A program made the position numbers and the translations under genes. A model generated the notes under the pieces. That model did not search any database. It was not told where the DNA came from and saw only the letters and a list, made by a program, of their open reading frames with translations. DNA of 24,000 nt from an uncultured Acidobacteriota bacterium (GTDB lineage Bacteria > Acidobacteriota > Terriglobia > Acidiferrales > UBA7541), in the NCBI GenBank assembly GCA_963729595.1, contig CAVSNW010000003.1:1750979-1774978 (forward strand), read 5' to 3'. Positions 3,685-13,455 of this stretch are shown here, piece after piece (within the stretch, counting starts at the first letter, position 1; every line of letters begins with the position of its first letter).

Positions 3685-3814
3685 GCAGTCGACAGTCGGC
3701 AGTTCAACGTTTACAGTTAACCCCGAAAAACAACACTGTGCCGAAGTGTGTAAACCAAGGTGTGGCGAAAACTTGACGTGTGGTTGGCCATTGAGGACTG
3801 ACGACTGACAACAC

Positions 3815-8205: not shown

Positions 8206-8342
8206 GGGGAATCCTTTTAGCGTTTTGGCGGAGTGCGCTGATCGAGCGGTGAATCATAGCCCGAAAGGGACGAGGATTGCCAAGTGTCTAGGAATCGCGT
8301 CATCGAGGCCATGCCTGGTTAATTGCCCGGGAGCGGTTTGAA

Positions 8343-8374
8343 GAAAGCAGACCTCGCGCCTCGCTCGGGATGAC
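8343..8374. repeat. Copy 1 of a short dispersed intergenic repeat (GTCATCCCGA...GAGG type)
   Basis: GAAAGCAGACCTCGCGCCTCGCTCGGGATGAC resembles 23912-23942 (GAAGCAAATCCCTCGCTCCGTTCGGGATGAC). They share TCGGGATGAC exactly, plus CCTCGC and GAAGCA-like flanks. Confidence 0.4.
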
Positions 8375-8424
8375 ATTTGTCATGTCGGGATGACACTTGT
8401 TGTGTCGGATGAAAGTTGTTGTAT
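8365..8424. repeat. Three tandem 20-bp direct repeats in a divergent promoter region
   Basis: The units are TCGGGATGACATTTGTCATG (8365-8384), TCGGGATGACACTTGTTGTG (8385-8404) and TCGGATGAAAGTTGTTGTAT (8405-8424). Unit 1 contains the 14-bp palindrome ATGACA-TT-TGTCAT (8370-8383). Confidence 0.6.
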
Positions 8425-8462
8425 TGTTCGCGTACGCCGGAGCGAGCGTAGTGGAGGGTGAG

Positions 8463-8729
8463 ATGCGGACTGCGTTGATTATTCTGGCCGGTTTTGTGCT
8501 GTGGGGTGTTTGTCTGGGGATCGCGAAAGTTGCTGCGGGAGCGAGAGAGTCGTCGATGAATCTGGCTACCGGGATTTTTGCGGTGCTCTGGTTCGTTGGG
8601 GCCGGGTTGAATATGTGGATCGGCGTGACCAAGGCGGGGTATTCGTTCCGCGAGGGGCTGCCAATATTTCTGGTGATTTTCCTCGTGCCGACCATCGTGG
8701 CGGTGATCGTGATGTGGAAGGTTCTGTGA
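8463..8729 (+). CDS. Hypothetical small integral membrane protein (88 aa)
   Basis: The ATG at 8463 is preceded by GGAGGG at 8453-8458. Three hydrophobic helices are visible (ALIILAGFVLWGVCLGIA, GIFAVLWFVGAGLNMWI, LPIFLVIFLVPTIVAVIVMW). The track ORF begins further upstream at 8397 but lacks an RBS there. Confidence 0.5.
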   Translation: MRTALIILAGFVLWGVCLGIAKVAAGARESSMNLATGIFAVLWFVGAGLNMWIGVTKAGYSFREGLPIFLVIFLVPTIVAVIVMWKVL

Positions 8730-8758
8730 CAGTTTTCCCGAAAAGGGGCGACGACTGG

Positions 8759-9343
8759 ATGGGGACAAGCAGGCTCGAGGCATTCAGTGACGGAGTGATC
8801 GCGGTCATCATCACGATCATGGTGCTGGAATTGAAGGTGCCGCAGGAGACCACCCTCGGTGCGTTGAGGCCGTTGTGCATAACGCTGTCCAGCTACGTCC
8901 TGAGTTTCTTGTACGTGGGGATCTACTGGAACAACCATCACCACATGTTGCACACGTGCGAGAAGGTGACGGGCAGGATTCTTTGGGCGAACCTGCACTT
9001 GTTGTTCTGGTTGTCGTTGATTCCGTTTGCGACGGCATGGATGGGAGAGAAGTTTTCGGCGGCGGCGCCGGCCGCTTTGTACGGCGCGGTGCTGTTCCTC
9101 GCGGCGATTGCCTACGTGATTTTGCAGCAGCAGATTATCGCCTCGCAGCCGGAGAGCTCGCTGCTGAAAAAGGCGGTCGGAAAGGATTGGAAGGGGAAGG
9201 TTTCGTTGGCGCTTTATGTTATTGGGATTTCGGCCGCTTTTCGGGCAGCCTGGATTTCGCAGATGTTGTATGCATTGACGGCGCTGATCTGGCTGGTGCC
9301 CGATCGAAGAATTGAGAGGGTCATCGAAGGAAGCGAAGGGTGA
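8759..9343 (+). CDS. TMEM175 / DUF1211 family membrane protein (putative K+ channel)
   Basis: The N-terminal signature RLEAFSDGVIAVIITIMVLEL is followed by further TM helices (YVGIYWNNHHHMLH, LHLLFWLSLIPFATAWM). The start is either the ATG at 8759 or the in-frame GTG at 8726, which overlaps the upstream stop as GTGA. Confidence 0.85.
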   Translation: MGTSRLEAFSDGVIAVIITIMVLELKVPQETTLGALRPLCITLSSYVLSFLYVGIYWNNHHHMLHTCEKVTGRILWANLHLLFWLSLIPFATAWMGEKFSAAAPAALYGAVLFLAAIAYVILQQQIIASQPESSLLKKAVGKDWKGKVSLALYVIGISAAFRAAWISQMLYALTALIWLVPDRRIERVIEGSEG

Positions 9344-9473
9344 GATTGAGATCTGCAAGCGAGGCCTTCCTCGCACGAATCGAGCGCGAGTGACGTCGCG
9401 GAATGCTAAGTACTTTCGAATTAACAAGTAACGCGAAAAAGCCTGGTATTTTGCAGATTTGTAGAAATTGTGC

Positions 9474-9502
9474 TTGACAGAAAAACGAATTGGCTTTACT
9501 TT
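9474..9502 (+). promoter_or_regulatory. Sigma-70-like promoter candidate facing the structured RNA array
   Basis: TTGACA (9474-9479), a 17-nt spacer and TACTTT (9497-9502). It lies in an AT-rich stretch after the TMEM175-like gene and its GCGAGG/CCTCGC hairpin (9359-9374). Confidence 0.35.
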
Positions 9503-9704
9503 GCGGTTACCTCAGTTGTACGCCTGCCTTGCGGCGGGTCCTCACTGAGCGTGGAAAGCAAACGATGAGACATAAACAACTTAGCCAAGCTGGACGCATG
9601 AAAAGGCTGCAGGGTCTCGTCGATTGCTTGACCGCGCGACCATAACAGAATCAGCCTAAGTCATTTCGATCCAGAACCATGCGTTACGGAAATAGGTGTT
9701 TGTA

Positions 9705-9802
9705 TTTTCCGGGATGGTGAAGTTCACAGTTACTTCTGGTAAGGCCGAAAGGTCTCGGGTTCGAAGCCCGAAAGACTGTGAGCGGTTGTTCCTCCCGGAA
9801 AA
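9705..9802 (+). ncRNA. Y-RNA-like structured RNA, module A (bulged basal helix plus compact tRNA-elbow mimic)
   Basis: Basal helix: 9705-9714 TTTTCCGGGA pairs with 9793-9802 TCCCGGAAAA, T9715 is bulged, and GG 9716-9717 pairs with CC 9791-9792. Second helix: TCACAGT 9724-9730 with ACTGTGA 9775-9781. Then TA, and CTT 9733-9735 with AAG 9772-9774. A CTGGTAA linker follows. A GAAA-capped hairpin (GGCC/GGTC) spans 9743-9754. A canonical T arm, TCGGG-TTCGAAG-CCCGA, spans 9755-9771. Confidence 0.45.
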
Positions 9803-9949
9803 GATTCACGTTGTGATGGATTGACTTGGTCGGGGCGTTTGGGGCGCGCCCTTTGAAGCTCAGAGTAAAGGAGCCCCGCCCGTACAAGAGAGGGCTGGTG
9901 TGTGCGTGCTGAAGGTGTGAGTGCAAGCGCGATTTTGCTGAAAAGTTTT

Positions 9950-10076
9950 CGGCGTGGCGAAGGCGCAAGTTACATCGGATCCATGGGTCGCAGGTTCAAT
10001 TCCTGCCGGTGGCGAAAGCAGCCGTAGCTCAGTGGTAGAGCAATGGGCAAAAAACTCGTGCCGGATGTTCCCGCCG
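9950..10076 (+). ncRNA. yrlA: YrlA-like Y RNA candidate, module C: circularly permuted tRNA mimic on a bulged basal helix
   Basis: Basal helix: CGGCG 9950-9954 with CGCCG 10072-10076, T9955 bulged, GG 9956-9957 with CC 10070-10071. Middle helix: ACATCGG 9972-9978 with CCGGATGT 10061-10068, with one bulged G. tRNA-like core, in order: TCCAT 9980-9984 (anticodon-stem 3' strand analog), 5-nt variable GGGTC, T arm GCAGG-TTCAATT-CCTGC 9990-10006, acceptor-like CGGTGGC-GAAA-GCAGCCG 10007-10024, TA, D arm GCTC-AGTGGTA-GAGC 10027-10041, A, ATGGG 10043-10047. Confidence 0.7.
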
Positions 10077-10117
10077 CAGAGCTTGAAGCACGGCCAGGAA
10101 TGGCTTGCTACCGAGAT

Positions 10118-10202
10118 GCCGGGATGGTGGGGAGTGGAGTTACTTCGTCTTGACACGATGCGGGGCGGATGTCCCGTGCCTCTGCTCGAAGTTCCTCCCG
10201 GC
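10118..10202 (+). ncRNA. Y-RNA-like structured RNA, module B (long imperfect hairpin, no tRNA-like domain)
   Basis: Basal helix: GCCGGGA 10118-10124 with TCCCGGC 10196-10202, T10125 bulged, GG 10126-10127 with CC 10194-10195. An internal loop follows (TGGG versus GAAGTT). Then GAGTGGAG 10132-10139 pairs with CTCTGCTC 10180-10187 (8 bp, two G-U). The apical region holds CGGGG/TCCCG-type pairing. Module B shares CCGGGATGGTG and GTTCCTCCCGG exactly with module A. Confidence 0.45.
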
Positions 10203-10308
10203 TTGATCTTATCGGGCGGATTGGGGGAAGCCGCAAGTCTCCGCAGACTTCGCTTGGCGCTACAGGATGCGCGCGAATTTAGGGCGACTTGGAAAGGAGG
10301 GTCACAGT

Positions 10309-10569
10309 ATGGATGAAGAACTATCACTGGAAGGTCCGGTGTTGAGGATCAATGGAGAATGGATGCTTTTGATTCCTCTCGAAGCTGGAGGTGCTGAATT
10401 GGTGGAGTGCTCTCGCGGCGTTTCGGAAGTGCAAGGAGAGTTTCTCAAGATCGTCATTCCGGAGTGGCTCGCGGGCGTGCTCCGAATTGAAGAAGGAGAT
10501 TTGGTGCGCGTTCAGGAGTCAAACGGGACACTCAACATTCAACCGCGCGAGGCGAGGCCTGTGAACTGA
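10309..10569 (+). CDS. Small AbrB/SpoVT-like (swapped-hairpin) domain protein, 86 aa
   Basis: A strong SD, GGAAAGGAGGG (10291-10301), lies 7 nt before the ATG at 10309. The C-terminal half FLKIVIPEWLAGVLRIEEGDLVRVQESNGTLNIQP fits the AbrB/MazE/SpoVT pattern (v-IP-...-l-i-eGD-v-v-...-g-l-i-P). The N-terminal half (VLRINGEWMLLIPLEAGG) may be a second degenerate half-domain. Confidence 0.6.
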   Translation: MDEELSLEGPVLRINGEWMLLIPLEAGGAELVECSRGVSEVQGEFLKIVIPEWLAGVLRIEEGDLVRVQESNGTLNIQPREARPVN

Positions 10570-10624
10570 GTGAATCAGTGCTTGGTTGAGTCTAGTGCTC
10601 CGTAACTACAACGCCGCCAGGAAT

Positions 10625-10730
10625 GAGTCTGGGTGGCAACTCGAACGACGGGCCCGGTCAGCCAAAGCCGGAACGAAATGAGCCTTTGCGGCACGGCGGA
10701 AACCGTACCCGCTCGTCGCCACGCAGACTC
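10625..10730 (+). other. Structured leader or RNA element between the AbrB-like ORF and rsr
   Basis: GAGTCTG 10625-10631 pairs with CAGACTC 10724-10730, and GTGGC 10633-10637 pairs with GCCAC 10718-10722, across a G-G mismatch. These helices enclose about 80 nt that contain local hairpins (CCGG...CCGG, ACGG-CGGAAA-CCGT). The element is flanked by CAGGAATG direct repeats. Confidence 0.3.
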
Positions 10731-10813
10731 AGGAATGGCTTTGGCACGAAGAGAGATCTTGTGGCGCTGAGGAGTGCGGTCGGGCTCGGATGCGCAGAAA
10801 GGAGGAGTGGAAG

Positions 10814-12145
10814 ATGGCGAAGATGAATGTTTGGAAGCAGATGTTTGCGGTGCGGACGCACGAGGGAGCGGTGGCGCAGCGCGTCGATGCCAAACGCGAG
10901 CTTCGGCGCAGCGTGCTGACGTGTTTGCTGTGGGAAGACACGTTTTACGAGAAGGGCAGCGAGATCGCGAAGCGGATCGCGGGACTTGCCGCCGAAAGCA
11001 AGCCGGAGGATGTGGCGGCTCTTGCTTGCGAGGCGCGCGATGCGATGCAGCTTCGTCACGCGCCGCTCTTCCTGGTGCGCGAACTGGCGCGGCGCAAAGG
11101 CTCGGGTTCACTCGTAGCGGAATCGCTGGAGCGGGTAATCCAGCGAGCCGACGAATTGGGTGAGTTCGTGGCGCTGTACTGGAAAGAGAAGAAGCAGCCG
11201 CTGTCGGCAGGGGCGAAGCGCGGGCTGGCGCGGGCGTTCACGAAGTTCGACGCCTACCAGCTGGCGAAGTACGACCGCGAAGCCGTGGTGACGCTCCGCG
11301 ACGTGCTGTTCCTGTGCCACGCCAAACCGAAGGATGCCGAGCAAGCGGCCGTTTGGAAGAAACTCGTCGAGAACACGCTCGAATCTCCCGATACGTGGGA
11401 GGTTGCGTTGTCCGCAGGGAAAGACAAGCGCGAGAATTTCGAACGGTTGCTGCGGGAAGGCAAGCTCGGTGGCATGGCTGTGCTCCGCAACCTGCGCTTG
11501 ATGCTGGCTGCAGGCGTCGAGCCGTCGCTCATTCGTGAACGCCTCGAGAAAGGCGTGGGGCGCGCGCTGCCGTTCCGGTTTGTGACGGCGGCGCGGCACG
11601 CGCCGAAGGTGGAGGACGCGATCGAGGAGGCCATGCTCAAGGGAATCGTCGGACTTGGCGGACTTGCAGGTTCGACTGGACTGATTGTGGACGTGTCCGG
11701 GTCGATGGACGGCAAGTTGTCCAAGAAGGGCGAGACCACGCGCATGGATGCTGCGGCAGGGCTGGCGATCTTGCTGCGTGAGAGGGCCGAAGGGTTTTGC
11801 ATCGCGACCTTCTCCGACGCATGCGTCGAACTGCCTGCGCGGCGTGGCTTCGCGCTTCGCGACGTGATCGTGGGATCACAAGCGCACTCGGGGACGTACC
11901 TCAAGCGCGCGCTGGAGAAGCTCCACGAGAAGCGAGAATGGCGCGAGCTTTCGCGAATCATCGTGATCACCGACGAGCAATCGCACGACGGAATCCTGGA
12001 TGCGTGGACGCCGAAGGCGTACGTCGTCAACGTGGCCCCGTATCAGTACGGCATCAGCTACGGTCGAGGATGGACGCACGTGGACGGTTGGTCGGAACGG
12101 ATCGTGGATTACATTGCGGCGGTGGAGGAAGAGACCGCGGCGTAA
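10814..12145 (+). CDS. rsr: TROVE domain + vWA domain protein, Ro60 ortholog (Rsr-like)
   Basis: The SD AAAGGAGGAG at 10798-10807 favours the ATG at 10814 over the track start at 10790. The N-terminal TROVE-type block is RTHEGAVAQRVDAKRELRRSVLTCLLWEDTFYEKG, followed by a helical-repeat body. The C-terminal vWA domain has the MIDAS motif DVSGSM (nt 11690-11707) and a later ITDEQSHD block. Confidence 0.88.
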   Translation: MAKMNVWKQMFAVRTHEGAVAQRVDAKRELRRSVLTCLLWEDTFYEKGSEIAKRIAGLAAESKPEDVAALACEARDAMQLRHAPLFLVRELARRKGSGSLVAESLERVIQRADELGEFVALYWKEKKQPLSAGAKRGLARAFTKFDAYQLAKYDREAVVTLRDVLFLCHAKPKDAEQAAVWKKLVENTLESPDTWEVALSAGKDKRENFERLLREGKLGGMAVLRNLRLMLAAGVEPSLIRERLEKGVGRALPFRFVTAARHAPKVEDAIEEAMLKGIVGLGGLAGSTGLIVDVSGSMDGKLSKKGETTRMDAAAGLAILLRERAEGFCIATFSDACVELPARRGFALRDVIVGSQAHSGTYLKRALEKLHEKREWRELSRIIVITDEQSHDGILDAWTPKAYVVNVAPYQYGISYGRGWTHVDGWSERIVDYIAAVEEETAA

Positions 12146-13455
12146 TTCGTTAACAAAAGCGATTTGCCGGCGCGGCGGAAAGATTCGTCGCGCCGCTTTC
12201 TTTGGGGCGTTGTGCACTGGAAGAGAATCCACAGGGCTGCCCAGACCTCGCCCCGCGCTACAAGAGGCTCGCAGCGCGGGAGGTGGCGGAGGTGTAACAG
12301 TCCGGAATGAGGGTTTCGACGGAGCCGAAGCAGGCGGCAGCGAGGGCGGGCCAAATCAGCGCGTTCGTAGGCGAGAAGAATGTTGTAGATGTTGCGCAAT
12401 TGGTTCGGGCCGCCACAGAGGGCGGTGCGGATCTGCGGGGAAACAGGGAGGTTAGAAAGGACCTCCTCGATTGGCCGGTCGAGGATGGCGTCGGTGACGG
12501 AGAGAAGGCCCATCAGGAAGAGGTCAGAGGCCTGAGAAGAGATGCCGGCATGGTTGGCCATGGCTTCGCAGAAAAAGGCCCGGGTCAGAGCGGTACGAAT
12601 GAGCTCAGGCGGTTTGTCGCTGGCCATGGCGACGACGGCGAGGATGGAAATCCAGCGGCGAAACTCGTTATCACCGAGCAAGGAAATGGCCTCGCGAACA
12701 TCGTGAATTTCTCCGCGAAGGCCGAGCAGCGGGGAGTTTAGGTACCGGAGGAGCTTGTAAACAAGAGAAGGGTCGCTCTTCAGCAGGTCTTCGACAACTT
12801 CGTGGGAAAAGGCTGCGGGGGAAACCGCGGCGAGGAGCCGCAGATAGTGAAGTTTGTTTCCAGGAATTTCGCGGGCGTTGAGCATGGCGGGCTTGCAAAA
12901 GAAATAACCCTGGAAAAAGGTGTAGCCGAGGGAGCGGGCTTCGTTGAGCTCAGCTTGGGTTTCGACTTTTTCGGCCAGGAGTTGCATACCGTCACCTTTG
13001 TGGCGGCGGCTGACGGTCGCGCGGGTGTCAGAATCGGCAGCGCGAAAGTCGACTTTAAGAAATTTTGCGACCGGGAGTAAGAGATCCCACTTGGGGTGGC
13101 CGATGTAATCGTCCAGCGCGAGAGTGTAGCCGGCGTCGCGGAGATCAGTGCAAAGCTGGACGACCTCCGGAGTGGGGACGATGTTTTCGAGAATTTCGAG
13201 AATGACGCGATCGGGAGGAAGGAAGCGCGCGGCGCCGCGCTGGAGAGCGGAGAGATCGACATTGATGAAGGCTTTCGCGCTGCCGGTGAGAGTCTGGAGA
13301 TCGAACAGCATGGTGGAATCAACGATGACGCTACTAGAGGCTTCCTTTTGGGGGCGAAAAATGTTGTCCGGACCGGCACGGAACAAGAGTTCGTAGGCGA
13401 AGAGCTTGAGTTTTTCGTCGAAGATTGGCTGACGAGCGATGAACTTTTCGTACAT
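12109..13455 (-). CDS. EAL domain + HDOD domain signalling protein; the C-terminal ~80 codons are probably out of frame (see findings)
   Basis: The start is taken at the ATG at 13455 (MYEKFIARQPIFD), not the upstream TTG of the track ORF. EAL-domain blocks: YELLFR, VILEILEN, LALDDYIG, FLKVDF, LLAEKVETQAE, FFQGYFFCKP. HDOD block: LLKSDPSLVYKLLRYLNSPLLGLRGEIHDVREAISLLG. The Arg-rich tail after ...LAYERAD runs through the rsr terminator and 37 nt into rsr. Confidence 0.8.
   Translation of the reverse strand: MYEKFIARQPIFDEKLKLFAYELLFRAGPDNIFRPQKEASSSVIVDSTMLFDLQTLTGSAKAFINVDLSALQRGAARFLPPDRVILEILENIVPTPEVVQLCTDLRDAGYTLALDDYIGHPKWDLLLPVAKFLKVDFRAADSDTRATVSRRHKGDGMQLLAEKVETQAELNEARSLGYTFFQGYFFCKPAMLNAREIPGNKLHYLRLLAAVSPAAFSHEVVEDLLKSDPSLVYKLLRYLNSPLLGLRGEIHDVREAISLLGDNEFRRWISILAVVAMASDKPPELIRTALTRAFFCEAMANHAGISSQASDLFLMGLLSVTDAILDRPIEEVLSNLPVSPQIRTALCGGPNQLRNIYNILLAYERADLARPRCRLLRLRRNPHSGLLHLRHLPRCEPLVARGEVWAALWILFQCTTPQRKRRDESFRRAGKSLLLTNYAAVSSSTAAM
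12169..12203. terminator. Intrinsic terminator candidate downstream of rsr (possibly bidirectional)
   Basis: GGCGCGG 12169-12175 pairs with CCGCGCC 12189-12195, and CGGA 12176-12179 pairs with TTCG 12184-12187 with T12188 bulged. The loop is AAGA. The stem is followed by C-TTTCTTT (12196-12203). On the minus strand the same stem is followed within about 10 nt by TTTTGTT. Confidence 0.5.

Follow-up and report, generated by a model that had tools for sequence, protein, structure and literature searches.

A probable YrlA-class Y RNA gene with a tRNA-shaped head upstream of rsr in an Acidobacteriota chromosome

What is an element that carries the arms of a transfer RNA (tRNA) in permuted order, has neither an anticodon loop nor a free CCA end, and lies upstream of a gene for Rsr, the bacterial Ro60 orthologue? 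The question is raised by a 24,000-nt stretch of an Acidobacteriota chromosome (the window; all its coordinates count from its first letter). The element, called Y2, is the middle unit of an array and spans 9948-10078 on the + strand. Very probably it is the gene for a YrlA-class bacterial Y RNA, made of a presumed Rsr-docking stem and a tRNA-shaped head. A preceding analysis of the letters alone (the sequence-only reading) had delimited it as 9950-10076; the element is there, but its real ends lie 2 nt further out on each side. Its parts are the following.

9948-10078, + strand: whole unit Y2, probable YrlA-class Y RNA, identified by the covariance model R1 (see below), the Rfam YrlA family and nhmmer matches in relatives
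9948-9957, + strand: 5' strand of the basal helix P1, UUCGGCG-U-GG with bulged U9955, pairing with 10070-10078
9956-9962, + strand: GGCGAAG, a GNCGAAN0-1G motif (as defined in PMC4201824) and putative Rsr contact
9962-9971, + strand: 5' strand of helix P2, GGCGCAAG plus UU, pairing with 10053-10062
9970-9973, + strand: UUAC, the YUAY element (PMC4201824) before the V region; GUUAC(A/U)UCG is near-invariant in the family
9980-9984, + strand: UCCAU, one strand of P3, the 5-pair anticodon-stem analogue (3'-side strand in tRNA numbering), pairing with 10043-10047
9990-10006, + strand: T arm GCAGG-UUCAAUU-CCUGC
10007-10024, + strand: 7-bp acceptor-like stem with a GAAA tetraloop at 10014-10017
10025-10026, + strand: UA at tRNA positions 8 and 9
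10027-10041, + strand: D arm GCUC-AGUGGUA-GAGC
10043-10047, + strand: AUGGG, partner strand of P3, preceded by A10042, the position-26 analogue
10053-10062, + strand: 3' strand of P2, AA-CUCGUGCC, conserved, part of the minimum free energy (MFE) structure
10063-10069, + strand: GGAUGUU, 3' side of the internal loop, conserved, the UU preceding CC being invariant
10070-10078, + strand: 3' strand of P1, CC-CGCCGCA, covarying in both alignments described below

Head and stem of Y2

All segments that the sequence-only reading had recognized between 9980 and 10047 are present as it gave them: TCCAT, GGGTC, the T arm, the GAAA-capped helix, TA, the D arm, A10042 and ATGGG. The GGGTC segment (GGGUC in the RNA) is a variable-loop analogue of 5 nt, 9985-9989; its last residue, C9989, stands for tRNA position 48 and is the Levitt partner of G10032. 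The two strands of the acceptor-like stem, CGGTGGC and GCAGCCG, pair in the order C:G, G:C, G:C, U:G, G.A, G:C, C:G, that is, with five Watson-Crick pairs, one U:G and one G.A, again as claimed. The D stem GCUC/GAGC has the same letters as the consensus stem of Rfam YrlA. From 5' to 3' the head has the order of a permuted tRNA: T arm, one side of the 7-bp stem, GAAA, the other side of the stem, D arm.

The geometry was assessed by opening the GAAA cap, joining the other end by a synthetic 7-nt loop and submitting the rotated sequence to ARAGORN. Rotated Y2 is called as a standard 75-nt class-I cloverleaf, while none of 200 shuffled sequences is called. The junction lengths of 2, 1 and 5 nt are therefore identical to those in a tRNA, as the sequence-only reading had it, and the permuted-tRNA search that it proposed gives a positive answer. 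Rotated homologues behave likewise in 52 of 58 cases. Unrotated Y2 is not called by ARAGORN, and across the whole window neither Rfam at curated thresholds nor ARAGORN returns a match (no tRNA, 0 ARAGORN genes). An ordinary tRNA was rejected on these grounds, the cloverleaf appearing only after rotation and with a synthetic anticodon loop.

A true circularly permuted tRNA gene, whose transcript would be circularized and reopened at the acceptor cap to yield an aminoacylatable tRNA, would likewise account for the perfect class-I cloverleaf with its 7-bp acceptor stem. [quoted passage not shown] This explanation is nevertheless very unlikely. Where an anticodon loop should be, the stem continues into P2 and P1, both conserved and covarying; P2 and P3 are separated by a segment of variable length and sequence; no bulge-helix-bulge motif is present; and the element always accompanies rsr and sibling units that lack a tRNA-like head. 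Permuted tRNA genes known from red algae and certain archaea (Soma et al. 2007, cited after Wang et al. 2018) share with Y2 the leading T-arm half, an acceptor stem closed by a short linker and termini on the anticodon side. In that account they gain a complete anticodon arm on splicing and become decoding tRNAs, whereas the termini of Y2 are predicted to form a conserved protein-binding stem. The termini on the anticodon side and the sealed acceptor end, both pointed out from the sequence alone, fit the reading of Y2 as a Y RNA.

Below the head of this candidate Y RNA, the order is P1, an asymmetric internal loop with CGAA (9958-9961) on its 5' side and GGAUGUU on its 3' side, P2, a variable junction starting with UUAC, and P3. 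In an alignment of 58 units (A2, see below), P1 is paired in 98.5% of cells and 6 of its 9 pairs show compensatory changes; in a separate viral set all 9 do. The bulged U and the GG/CC pairs are near-invariant across the 58 sequences, and the bulged basal helix of the sequence-only reading is upheld by these data. P2, the MFE helix, is paired in 90.3% of cells with compensation at 6 of 8 pairs (95% and 8/8 in the viral set). The site of the GNCGAA motif reads GGUGAAG in most family members.

The sequence-only reading had routed the anticodon-side helix through ACATCGG/CCGGATGT (in RNA letters ACAUCGG/CCGGAUGU), flanked by loops of 13 and 14 nt. This complementarity is present in the window copy and is mutually exclusive with P2, GGCGCAAG(UU)/(AA)CUCGUGCC. 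It is paired in 54% of cells over the 58 homologues, without real covariation, and was rejected in favour of P2. With P2 in its place, the two supposed loops are for the most part its strands, and GGAUGUU becomes the internal-loop strand that faces CGAA. The assignment of P1, internal loop and P2 is further supported by the neighbouring units Y1 and Y3, which share exactly this module.

Conservation, covariation and the Rfam score

The comparative evidence comes from 80 species-representative genome loci gathered through alignment of the Rsr protein (55-90% identity). Searching them by nhmmer with Y2 gives 87 related units, all upstream of rsr, on the same strand and often in tandem. Alignment A2 (58 sequences, MAFFT) was scored for P1, P2, P3, the T arm, the acceptor-like stem (AS) and the D arm. 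It is 92.8% paired, and 27 of the 38 pairs are changed on both sides. Covariation amounts to 0.401, as against at most 0.086 when the partners are slid and 0.167 in shuffles. The T arm is 99% paired with compensation at 3 of 5 pairs, the acceptor-like stem 94.8% with 7/7, and the D stem, near-invariant, 99%. R1, the covariance model built from A2, detects 292 units in 77 of the 80 loci, all on the rsr strand; in the three negative loci rsr lies merely 59-673 nt from the start of the locus. R1 matches Y2 over its full length with 120 bits, a score that is not independent, the window sequence having been in the training set.

An assessment outside model building is provided by 132 units located beside rsr homologues on IMG/VR viral contigs (GC 0.38-0.67). 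In this viral set 91.8% of cells are paired, 37 of 38 pairs are compensated, and covariation is 0.506 versus at most 0.095 in the controls. All the viral units are on the rsr strand and nearly all are upstream of rsr. Cultured phages of Caulobacter, Xanthomonas, Brevundimonas and Microcystis carry these units too. This phage search matched 75 records, and the genome of Thermus phage phiLo is not among the 25 matches listed.

The nucleotides that would hold a tRNA elbow together are conserved too. U8, A14, G18, T54, T55, C56 and A58 are invariant in the 58 units, G19 is conserved, and A9 is found in 53 of them. The Levitt pair 15:48 covaries, being G:C in 21 units, A:U in 26 and otherwise composed in 11; the window copy has G10032:C9989. 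Thus both the T and D loops are kept in orthologous loci, as is a GNRA cap (50/58), with compensatory changes, and on this point as well the sequence-only reading holds.

This pattern bears on two other origins. In the first, two tRNA genes in tandem would be decaying and have left a functionless relic, made of the 3' half of the former and the 5' half of the latter. This would agree with the proposed derivation of YrlA RNAs from dimeric tRNA transcripts, with ARAGORN calling the 5' two-thirds of 20 relative units ordinary tRNAs, with the Rfam tRNA model spanning adjacent units and with real tRNA-Pro genes preceding some arrays. Against it, purifying selection is evident: compensatory changes preserve every helix, the acceptor-like stem and P1/P2 included, across Rsr proteins of 43-90% identity. 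With invariant nucleotides at the sites of tertiary interaction, a conserved GNRA cap and no flanking tRNA halves in the window, decay is a highly improbable explanation. The second is that the region codes for protein and that its RNA features are incidental. Mechanical open reading frames (ORFs) of 120 and 155 amino acids do overlap Y2 (9954-10316 on the + strand and 9860-10327 on the - strand). The + strand ORF is without a Pfam match, unit lengths modulo 3 are distributed as 23/15/20 with indels of every length class, and the substitutions compensate pairs and show no codon pattern. A coding origin can practically be dismissed.

How does this agree with the curated family? In E-value mode, the only meaningful Rfam match in 9400-10500 is YrlA (RF02553), aligned over its full length to 9960-10067 with 41 bits and E=2.1e-7. 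The T and D arms of Y2 align to the T and D hairpins of the model. Together with the Ro60/Rsr gene downstream and the published hallmarks discussed below, this sustains the YrlA architecture that had been named in the sequence-only reading. The covariance-model search which that reading proposed thus comes out above background, yet at 41 bits it stays under the curated threshold of 69.

That shortfall is one of several observations that weigh against the assignment. Y2 scores below the 69-bit gathering score of RF02553, and the relatives score 39-56 bits, none of those tested reaching 69. P3 is the weakest helix, with 71-76% of cells paired, though 5 of 5 pairs show compensatory changes; it lies in a length-variable region. 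At three positions where the family consensus is paired, the window copy has a mismatch: U9949.C10077, A9967.C10057 and G10011.A10020, the last being the G.A of the acceptor-like stem. The folding energy of Y2 is like that of shuffled sequences (z = -1.2), and thermodynamic stability was discarded as uninformative. Finally, no gene for PNPase, RtcB or RtcA is found among the genes of the window. As to the score, the 69-bit threshold is a matter of curation and not of biology, and the deficit stems from the stem part of the model. Because the relatives all fall between 39 and 56 bits, it is the whole subfamily that lies under this cut-off.

The sequence-only reading had also likened the 5' arm to the 5' strand of vertebrate Y1 RNA. 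The strand it gave is correct for human Y1 and corresponds verbatim to a Y RNA1 primer (PMC3928194). Its global alignment with window 9951-9976 scores 7, whereas shuffles score -4.8 +/- 2.9 and none of 2000 reaches 7; the blocks in common are CGAAGG and AGUUA. The resemblance is therefore genuine, but the metazoan Y_RNA model (RF00019) has no match at E<=10 in 9400-10500. What is seen is the already known similarity of the Ro60-binding motif and not membership of the metazoan family. Indeed, Chen et al. had noted the likeness of GNCGAA to the GGUCCGA contacted by Xenopus Ro60 (PMC4201824).

The array, rsr and the presumed role of Y2

Y2 is flanked by two further units and is followed on the same strand by a small ORF and by rsr.

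9708-9799, + strand: Y1, upstream Y-like unit (R1 48.9 bits), one of 38 sequences in a conserved class that has a consensus fold
10118-10202, + strand: Y3, downstream Y-like unit (R1 33.3 bits), member of a conserved class of 25 sequences
10309-10569, + strand: conserved small ORF of about 86 amino acids (tblastn 55-69% identity in more than 30 related loci, same position)
10814-12145 (alternative start 10790), + strand: rsr, Ro60 orthologue of 443 amino acids with TROVE and vWA domains (Pfam TROVE E=1e-13)
12168-12195, + strand: terminator-like hairpin after rsr, the sole strong one on this strand from the array to the end of rsr

The three units share a stem and differ in their heads. Y1 repeats the stem of Y2 (P1, bulged U, GG, UGAAG, P2, UUAC), its 5' module being in register with that of the other units, and bears a head composed of a GNRA-capped hairpin and a T-arm-like hairpin, CGGG-UUCGAAG-CCCG. 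Four of the 38 sequences in its class are called tRNA by ARAGORN. Y3 has the stem module of Y2, with GGUGGGG at the GNCGAA position, and a head of two hairpins that is not tRNA-like. Related loci contain 1-6 units, the tandem ones often 6-7 nt apart. Among their heads are plain hairpins and also tRNA-like forms in which the V arm is long, the acceptor-like arm extended or the D arm truncated. The two closest genome loci, L001 and L002, have a fourth unit between the small ORF and rsr, tRNA-like and with a long V arm; no remnant of it is detected in the corresponding non-coding stretch of the window (10575-10790, about 215 nt).

The start of rsr is 736 nt 3' of Y2, on the same strand and within the 4-kb distance used for YrlA RNAs. 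The protein has more than 8000 homologues, many of them named Ro60 or TROVE, the closest coming from metagenome-assembled genomes of Acidobacteriota. Among solved structures, the Ro60 of Thermus phage phiLo is nearest to this Rsr (E=3e-30). The product of the small ORF, which always lies between Y units and rsr, may be a functional partner in the locus; its similarity to the MazE/AbrB-type and UFD1-N folds is weak and sub-threshold. Otherwise the window is ordinary chromosome, with mutL, cmk, rho, lon, clpX, clpP and tig. Directly upstream of the array, an ORF of 375 amino acids on the - strand (8300-9427) has no Pfam or NCBIfam match. A motif, CAGGAATG(R)NNYT, is present in three + strand copies within 650 nt (10095, 10618 and 10730), one just before Y3 and one about 60 nt before rsr. 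As a conserved signal it was rejected: in related loci CAGGAATG occurs at background frequency and is not conserved, so that it is probably incidental.

Probably, the three units are cut from a single transcript on which the small ORF and rsr lie as well. The 6-7 nt spacing of units in relatives and the lack of a terminator before the end of rsr fit such co-transcription and processing. No sigma-70 consensus promoter site was found, which settles nothing since Acidobacterial promoters may differ.

The same arrangement might suggest that the units never leave the message, and that Y-like stems in a structured rsr mRNA leader serve as cis-acting Rsr-binding sites through which rsr is autoregulated, mRNA stability included, with no free RNA being made. 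Between the units and rsr there is indeed neither a sigma-70 promoter nor a terminator, the strong terminator comes only after rsr, and all units are on the rsr strand and almost always upstream. However, a conserved coding ORF intervenes, units in relatives may sit more than 2 kb upstream of rsr, and some viral contigs have units downstream of it (L144, L129, L118). A simple protein-binding leader needs neither exact tRNA geometry nor covariation of a tertiary pair. Moreover, in M. smegmatis and D. radiodurans a precursor containing the Y RNAs encoded upstream of rsr is processed, and the products are stable RNAs bound by Rsr. An mRNA leader is thus improbable, if less so than the other alternatives, and a free Y RNA of the YrlA class is the preferred interpretation of Y2.

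Comparison with characterized YrlA RNAs argues for the same interpretation. Their hallmarks are GNCGAAN0-1G, YUAY, the T/AS/D stem-loops, the UA linker, the tRNA tertiary nucleotides and a position at most 4 kb from the Ro60 gene on the same strand (Chen et al. 2014, PMC4201824); in sequence and position, all of these are present in Y2. Salmonella Typhimurium YrlA (RF02553) and Y2 are alike in their rsr neighbour on the same strand, GNCGAA, YUAY, the order of the head, the D stem, the T-arm consensus, the covarying Levitt pair and the lack of both an anticodon loop and a free CCA end. They differ in that Y2 has an exact 7-bp acceptor-like stem, a GNRA cap and a 5-nt class-I variable loop, and has no rtcBA/RtcR context. 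Of the Ro-binding helix, the YrlA RNAs of Salmonella and M. smegmatis show a recognizable 5' strand alone, while Deinococcus and metazoan Y RNAs have kept the two strands (Chen et al. 2014, PMC4201824). Y2 has both, as a covarying P1 followed by P2. Human Y1 (RF00019), Deinococcus Yrn1/Yrn2 and Y2 all pair their 5' and 3' ends in a bulged helix that binds Ro60 or, in Y2, is predicted to bind Rsr, followed by an internal loop and an upper stem. The bulge of Y2 is a U two pairs before CGAA, that of metazoan Y RNAs the C of GGUCCGA, and the latter RNAs have no evident tRNA-like head.

The M. smegmatis locus, with YrlA and YrlB, resembles the present array by its position upstream of rsr and its 7-bp acceptor-like stem, and its second Y RNA has only a T-arm-like hairpin, comparable to Y1. 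Its Y RNAs are processed from one precursor (Chen et al. 2014), and RNase P cleavage and CCA tailing of its YrlA have been shown experimentally, the 7-bp stem making it a substrate of RNase P. Y2 has this same feature in a GNRA-sealed form. With three units here and up to six in relatives, the array is larger than the documented cases. It is not new in kind, since several Y RNAs made upstream of rsr from one precursor are documented in both D. radiodurans and M. smegmatis. Phage phiLo offers a further comparison. Its Ro60 binds Yrl1 and Yrl2, encoded upstream, in a complex that includes PNPase (NAR 2025, PMC12135203; PDB 9KOP, 9L5Y). These RNAs have the plan of stem, CGAA-bearing internal bulge and stem seen in Y2; in the passages of that paper considered here they are, unlike the head of Y2, not described as tRNA-like.

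By homology with these systems, a mechanism can be proposed. P1 with its bulged U, the GNCGAA internal loop and P2 would form a docking module for the Ro60/Rsr ring. Through its head, Y2 would offer a tRNA elbow to a partner that binds tRNA or acts in RNA decay; alternatively, the head would shield the RNA from nucleases. In this way Y2 might tether or gate Rsr for RNA decay or repair, a role that has been shown for the Y RNA-Rsr-PNPase complexes of Deinococcus and Salmonella and for phage phiLo. The head would also be expected to carry tRNA modifications, the predicted sites being pseudouridine at U9996 (position 55) and dihydrouridine at U10033/U10036 in the D loop, made by TruB and DusA, respectively.

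A broader, joint view of the family combines modular adaptor arrays, a two-piece RNA made by RNase P and CCA addition, and living intermediates of a dimeric-tRNA origin. It is offered tentatively, as a conjecture that is more likely wrong than right. As adaptors, the units could combine a constant Rsr-docking stem with a library of heads (full tRNA mimic; long V or acceptor arm; T arm only; plain hairpin), and a co-transcribed array could steer a single Ro60 ring to several partners. By analogy with M. smegmatis YrlA, RNase P could cleave the GNRA cap wherever the acceptor stem is exactly 7 bp long, as in Y2, and CCA addition could follow, leaving a Y RNA in two pieces and with a genuine tRNA-like 3' end. 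Those units whose 5' two-thirds read as tRNAs would be the living intermediates.

What these findings add is limited to the lineage and a phage-linked Rsr subfamily, the failure of the Rfam model to register it, the two-stranded stem and the size of the array. The YrlA tRNA-mimic family now reaches into Acidobacteriota, a phylum abundant in soil and poorly cultured, and covers a large Rsr subfamily that is also found in many phages. The likeness to permuted tRNAs, the dimeric-tRNA origin model and a tRNA-like crystal structure of YrlA (Wang et al. 2018, bioRxiv 10.1101/312249) are already published; the concept of YrlA RNA is left unchanged, and the find is not a surprising one. Acidobacteria go unmentioned in the main text of Chen et al. 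2014, and a full-text literature search on Ro60 Y RNAs of Acidobacteria found none. The deep alignment gives a well-supported bacterial Y RNA stem (a two-stranded bulged helix, the CGAA loop and a second helix) that could guide Rsr-binding and structural work. The arrays of constant stems and variable heads, together with the 7-bp acceptor-like stem, lead to concrete predictions on RNase P processing and the recruitment of partners.

tRNA-like calls in related loci and phage genomes

In 20 of the relative units the 5' two-thirds are called a tRNA by ARAGORN, for instance at 3704-3771 of locus L066, 3701-3768 of L070, 3454-3523 of L023 and 2274-2348 of L061. In these calls the 5' strand of P1 serves as the 5' strand of the acceptor stem, the GNYGAA...UUAC region takes the place of the D arm, a long V hairpin that of the anticodon arm, and the T arm with the 5' strand of AS completes the fold. 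Along with the tRNA-Pro genes that precede some arrays, the 20 calls fit the published model of a dimeric-tRNA origin. A different kind of call is seen at L023 2795-2931, L007 2844-2980 and L009 1807-1938, where the Rfam tRNA model scores above threshold across the junction of two tRNA-like units. It builds its tRNA from the D half of the first unit and the T half of the second, taking the roughly 65 nt between them as an insertion, which is a trap for annotation.

The curated Rfam model systematically misses the subfamily (39-56 versus 69 bits), and as a result these RNAs are unannotated or labelled tRNA in deposited phage genomes. An annotated 'tRNA-Gln' of Caulobacter phage CcrColossus (109217-109284; L162 1673-1740) and an annotated 'tRNA-Ser' of Brevundimonas phage Gurke (157691-157765; L163 2287-2361) each lie inside an R1-type Y unit just upstream of a TROVE gene. 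Both are probably mis-annotated Y RNAs. CcrColossus has eight Y units in about 1.1 kb. Gurke, for its part, also encodes a permuted transfer-messenger RNA (RF04321, 57.7 bits, above threshold) at L163 5863-6208, about 2 kb downstream of the phage rsr and unrelated to the Y units.

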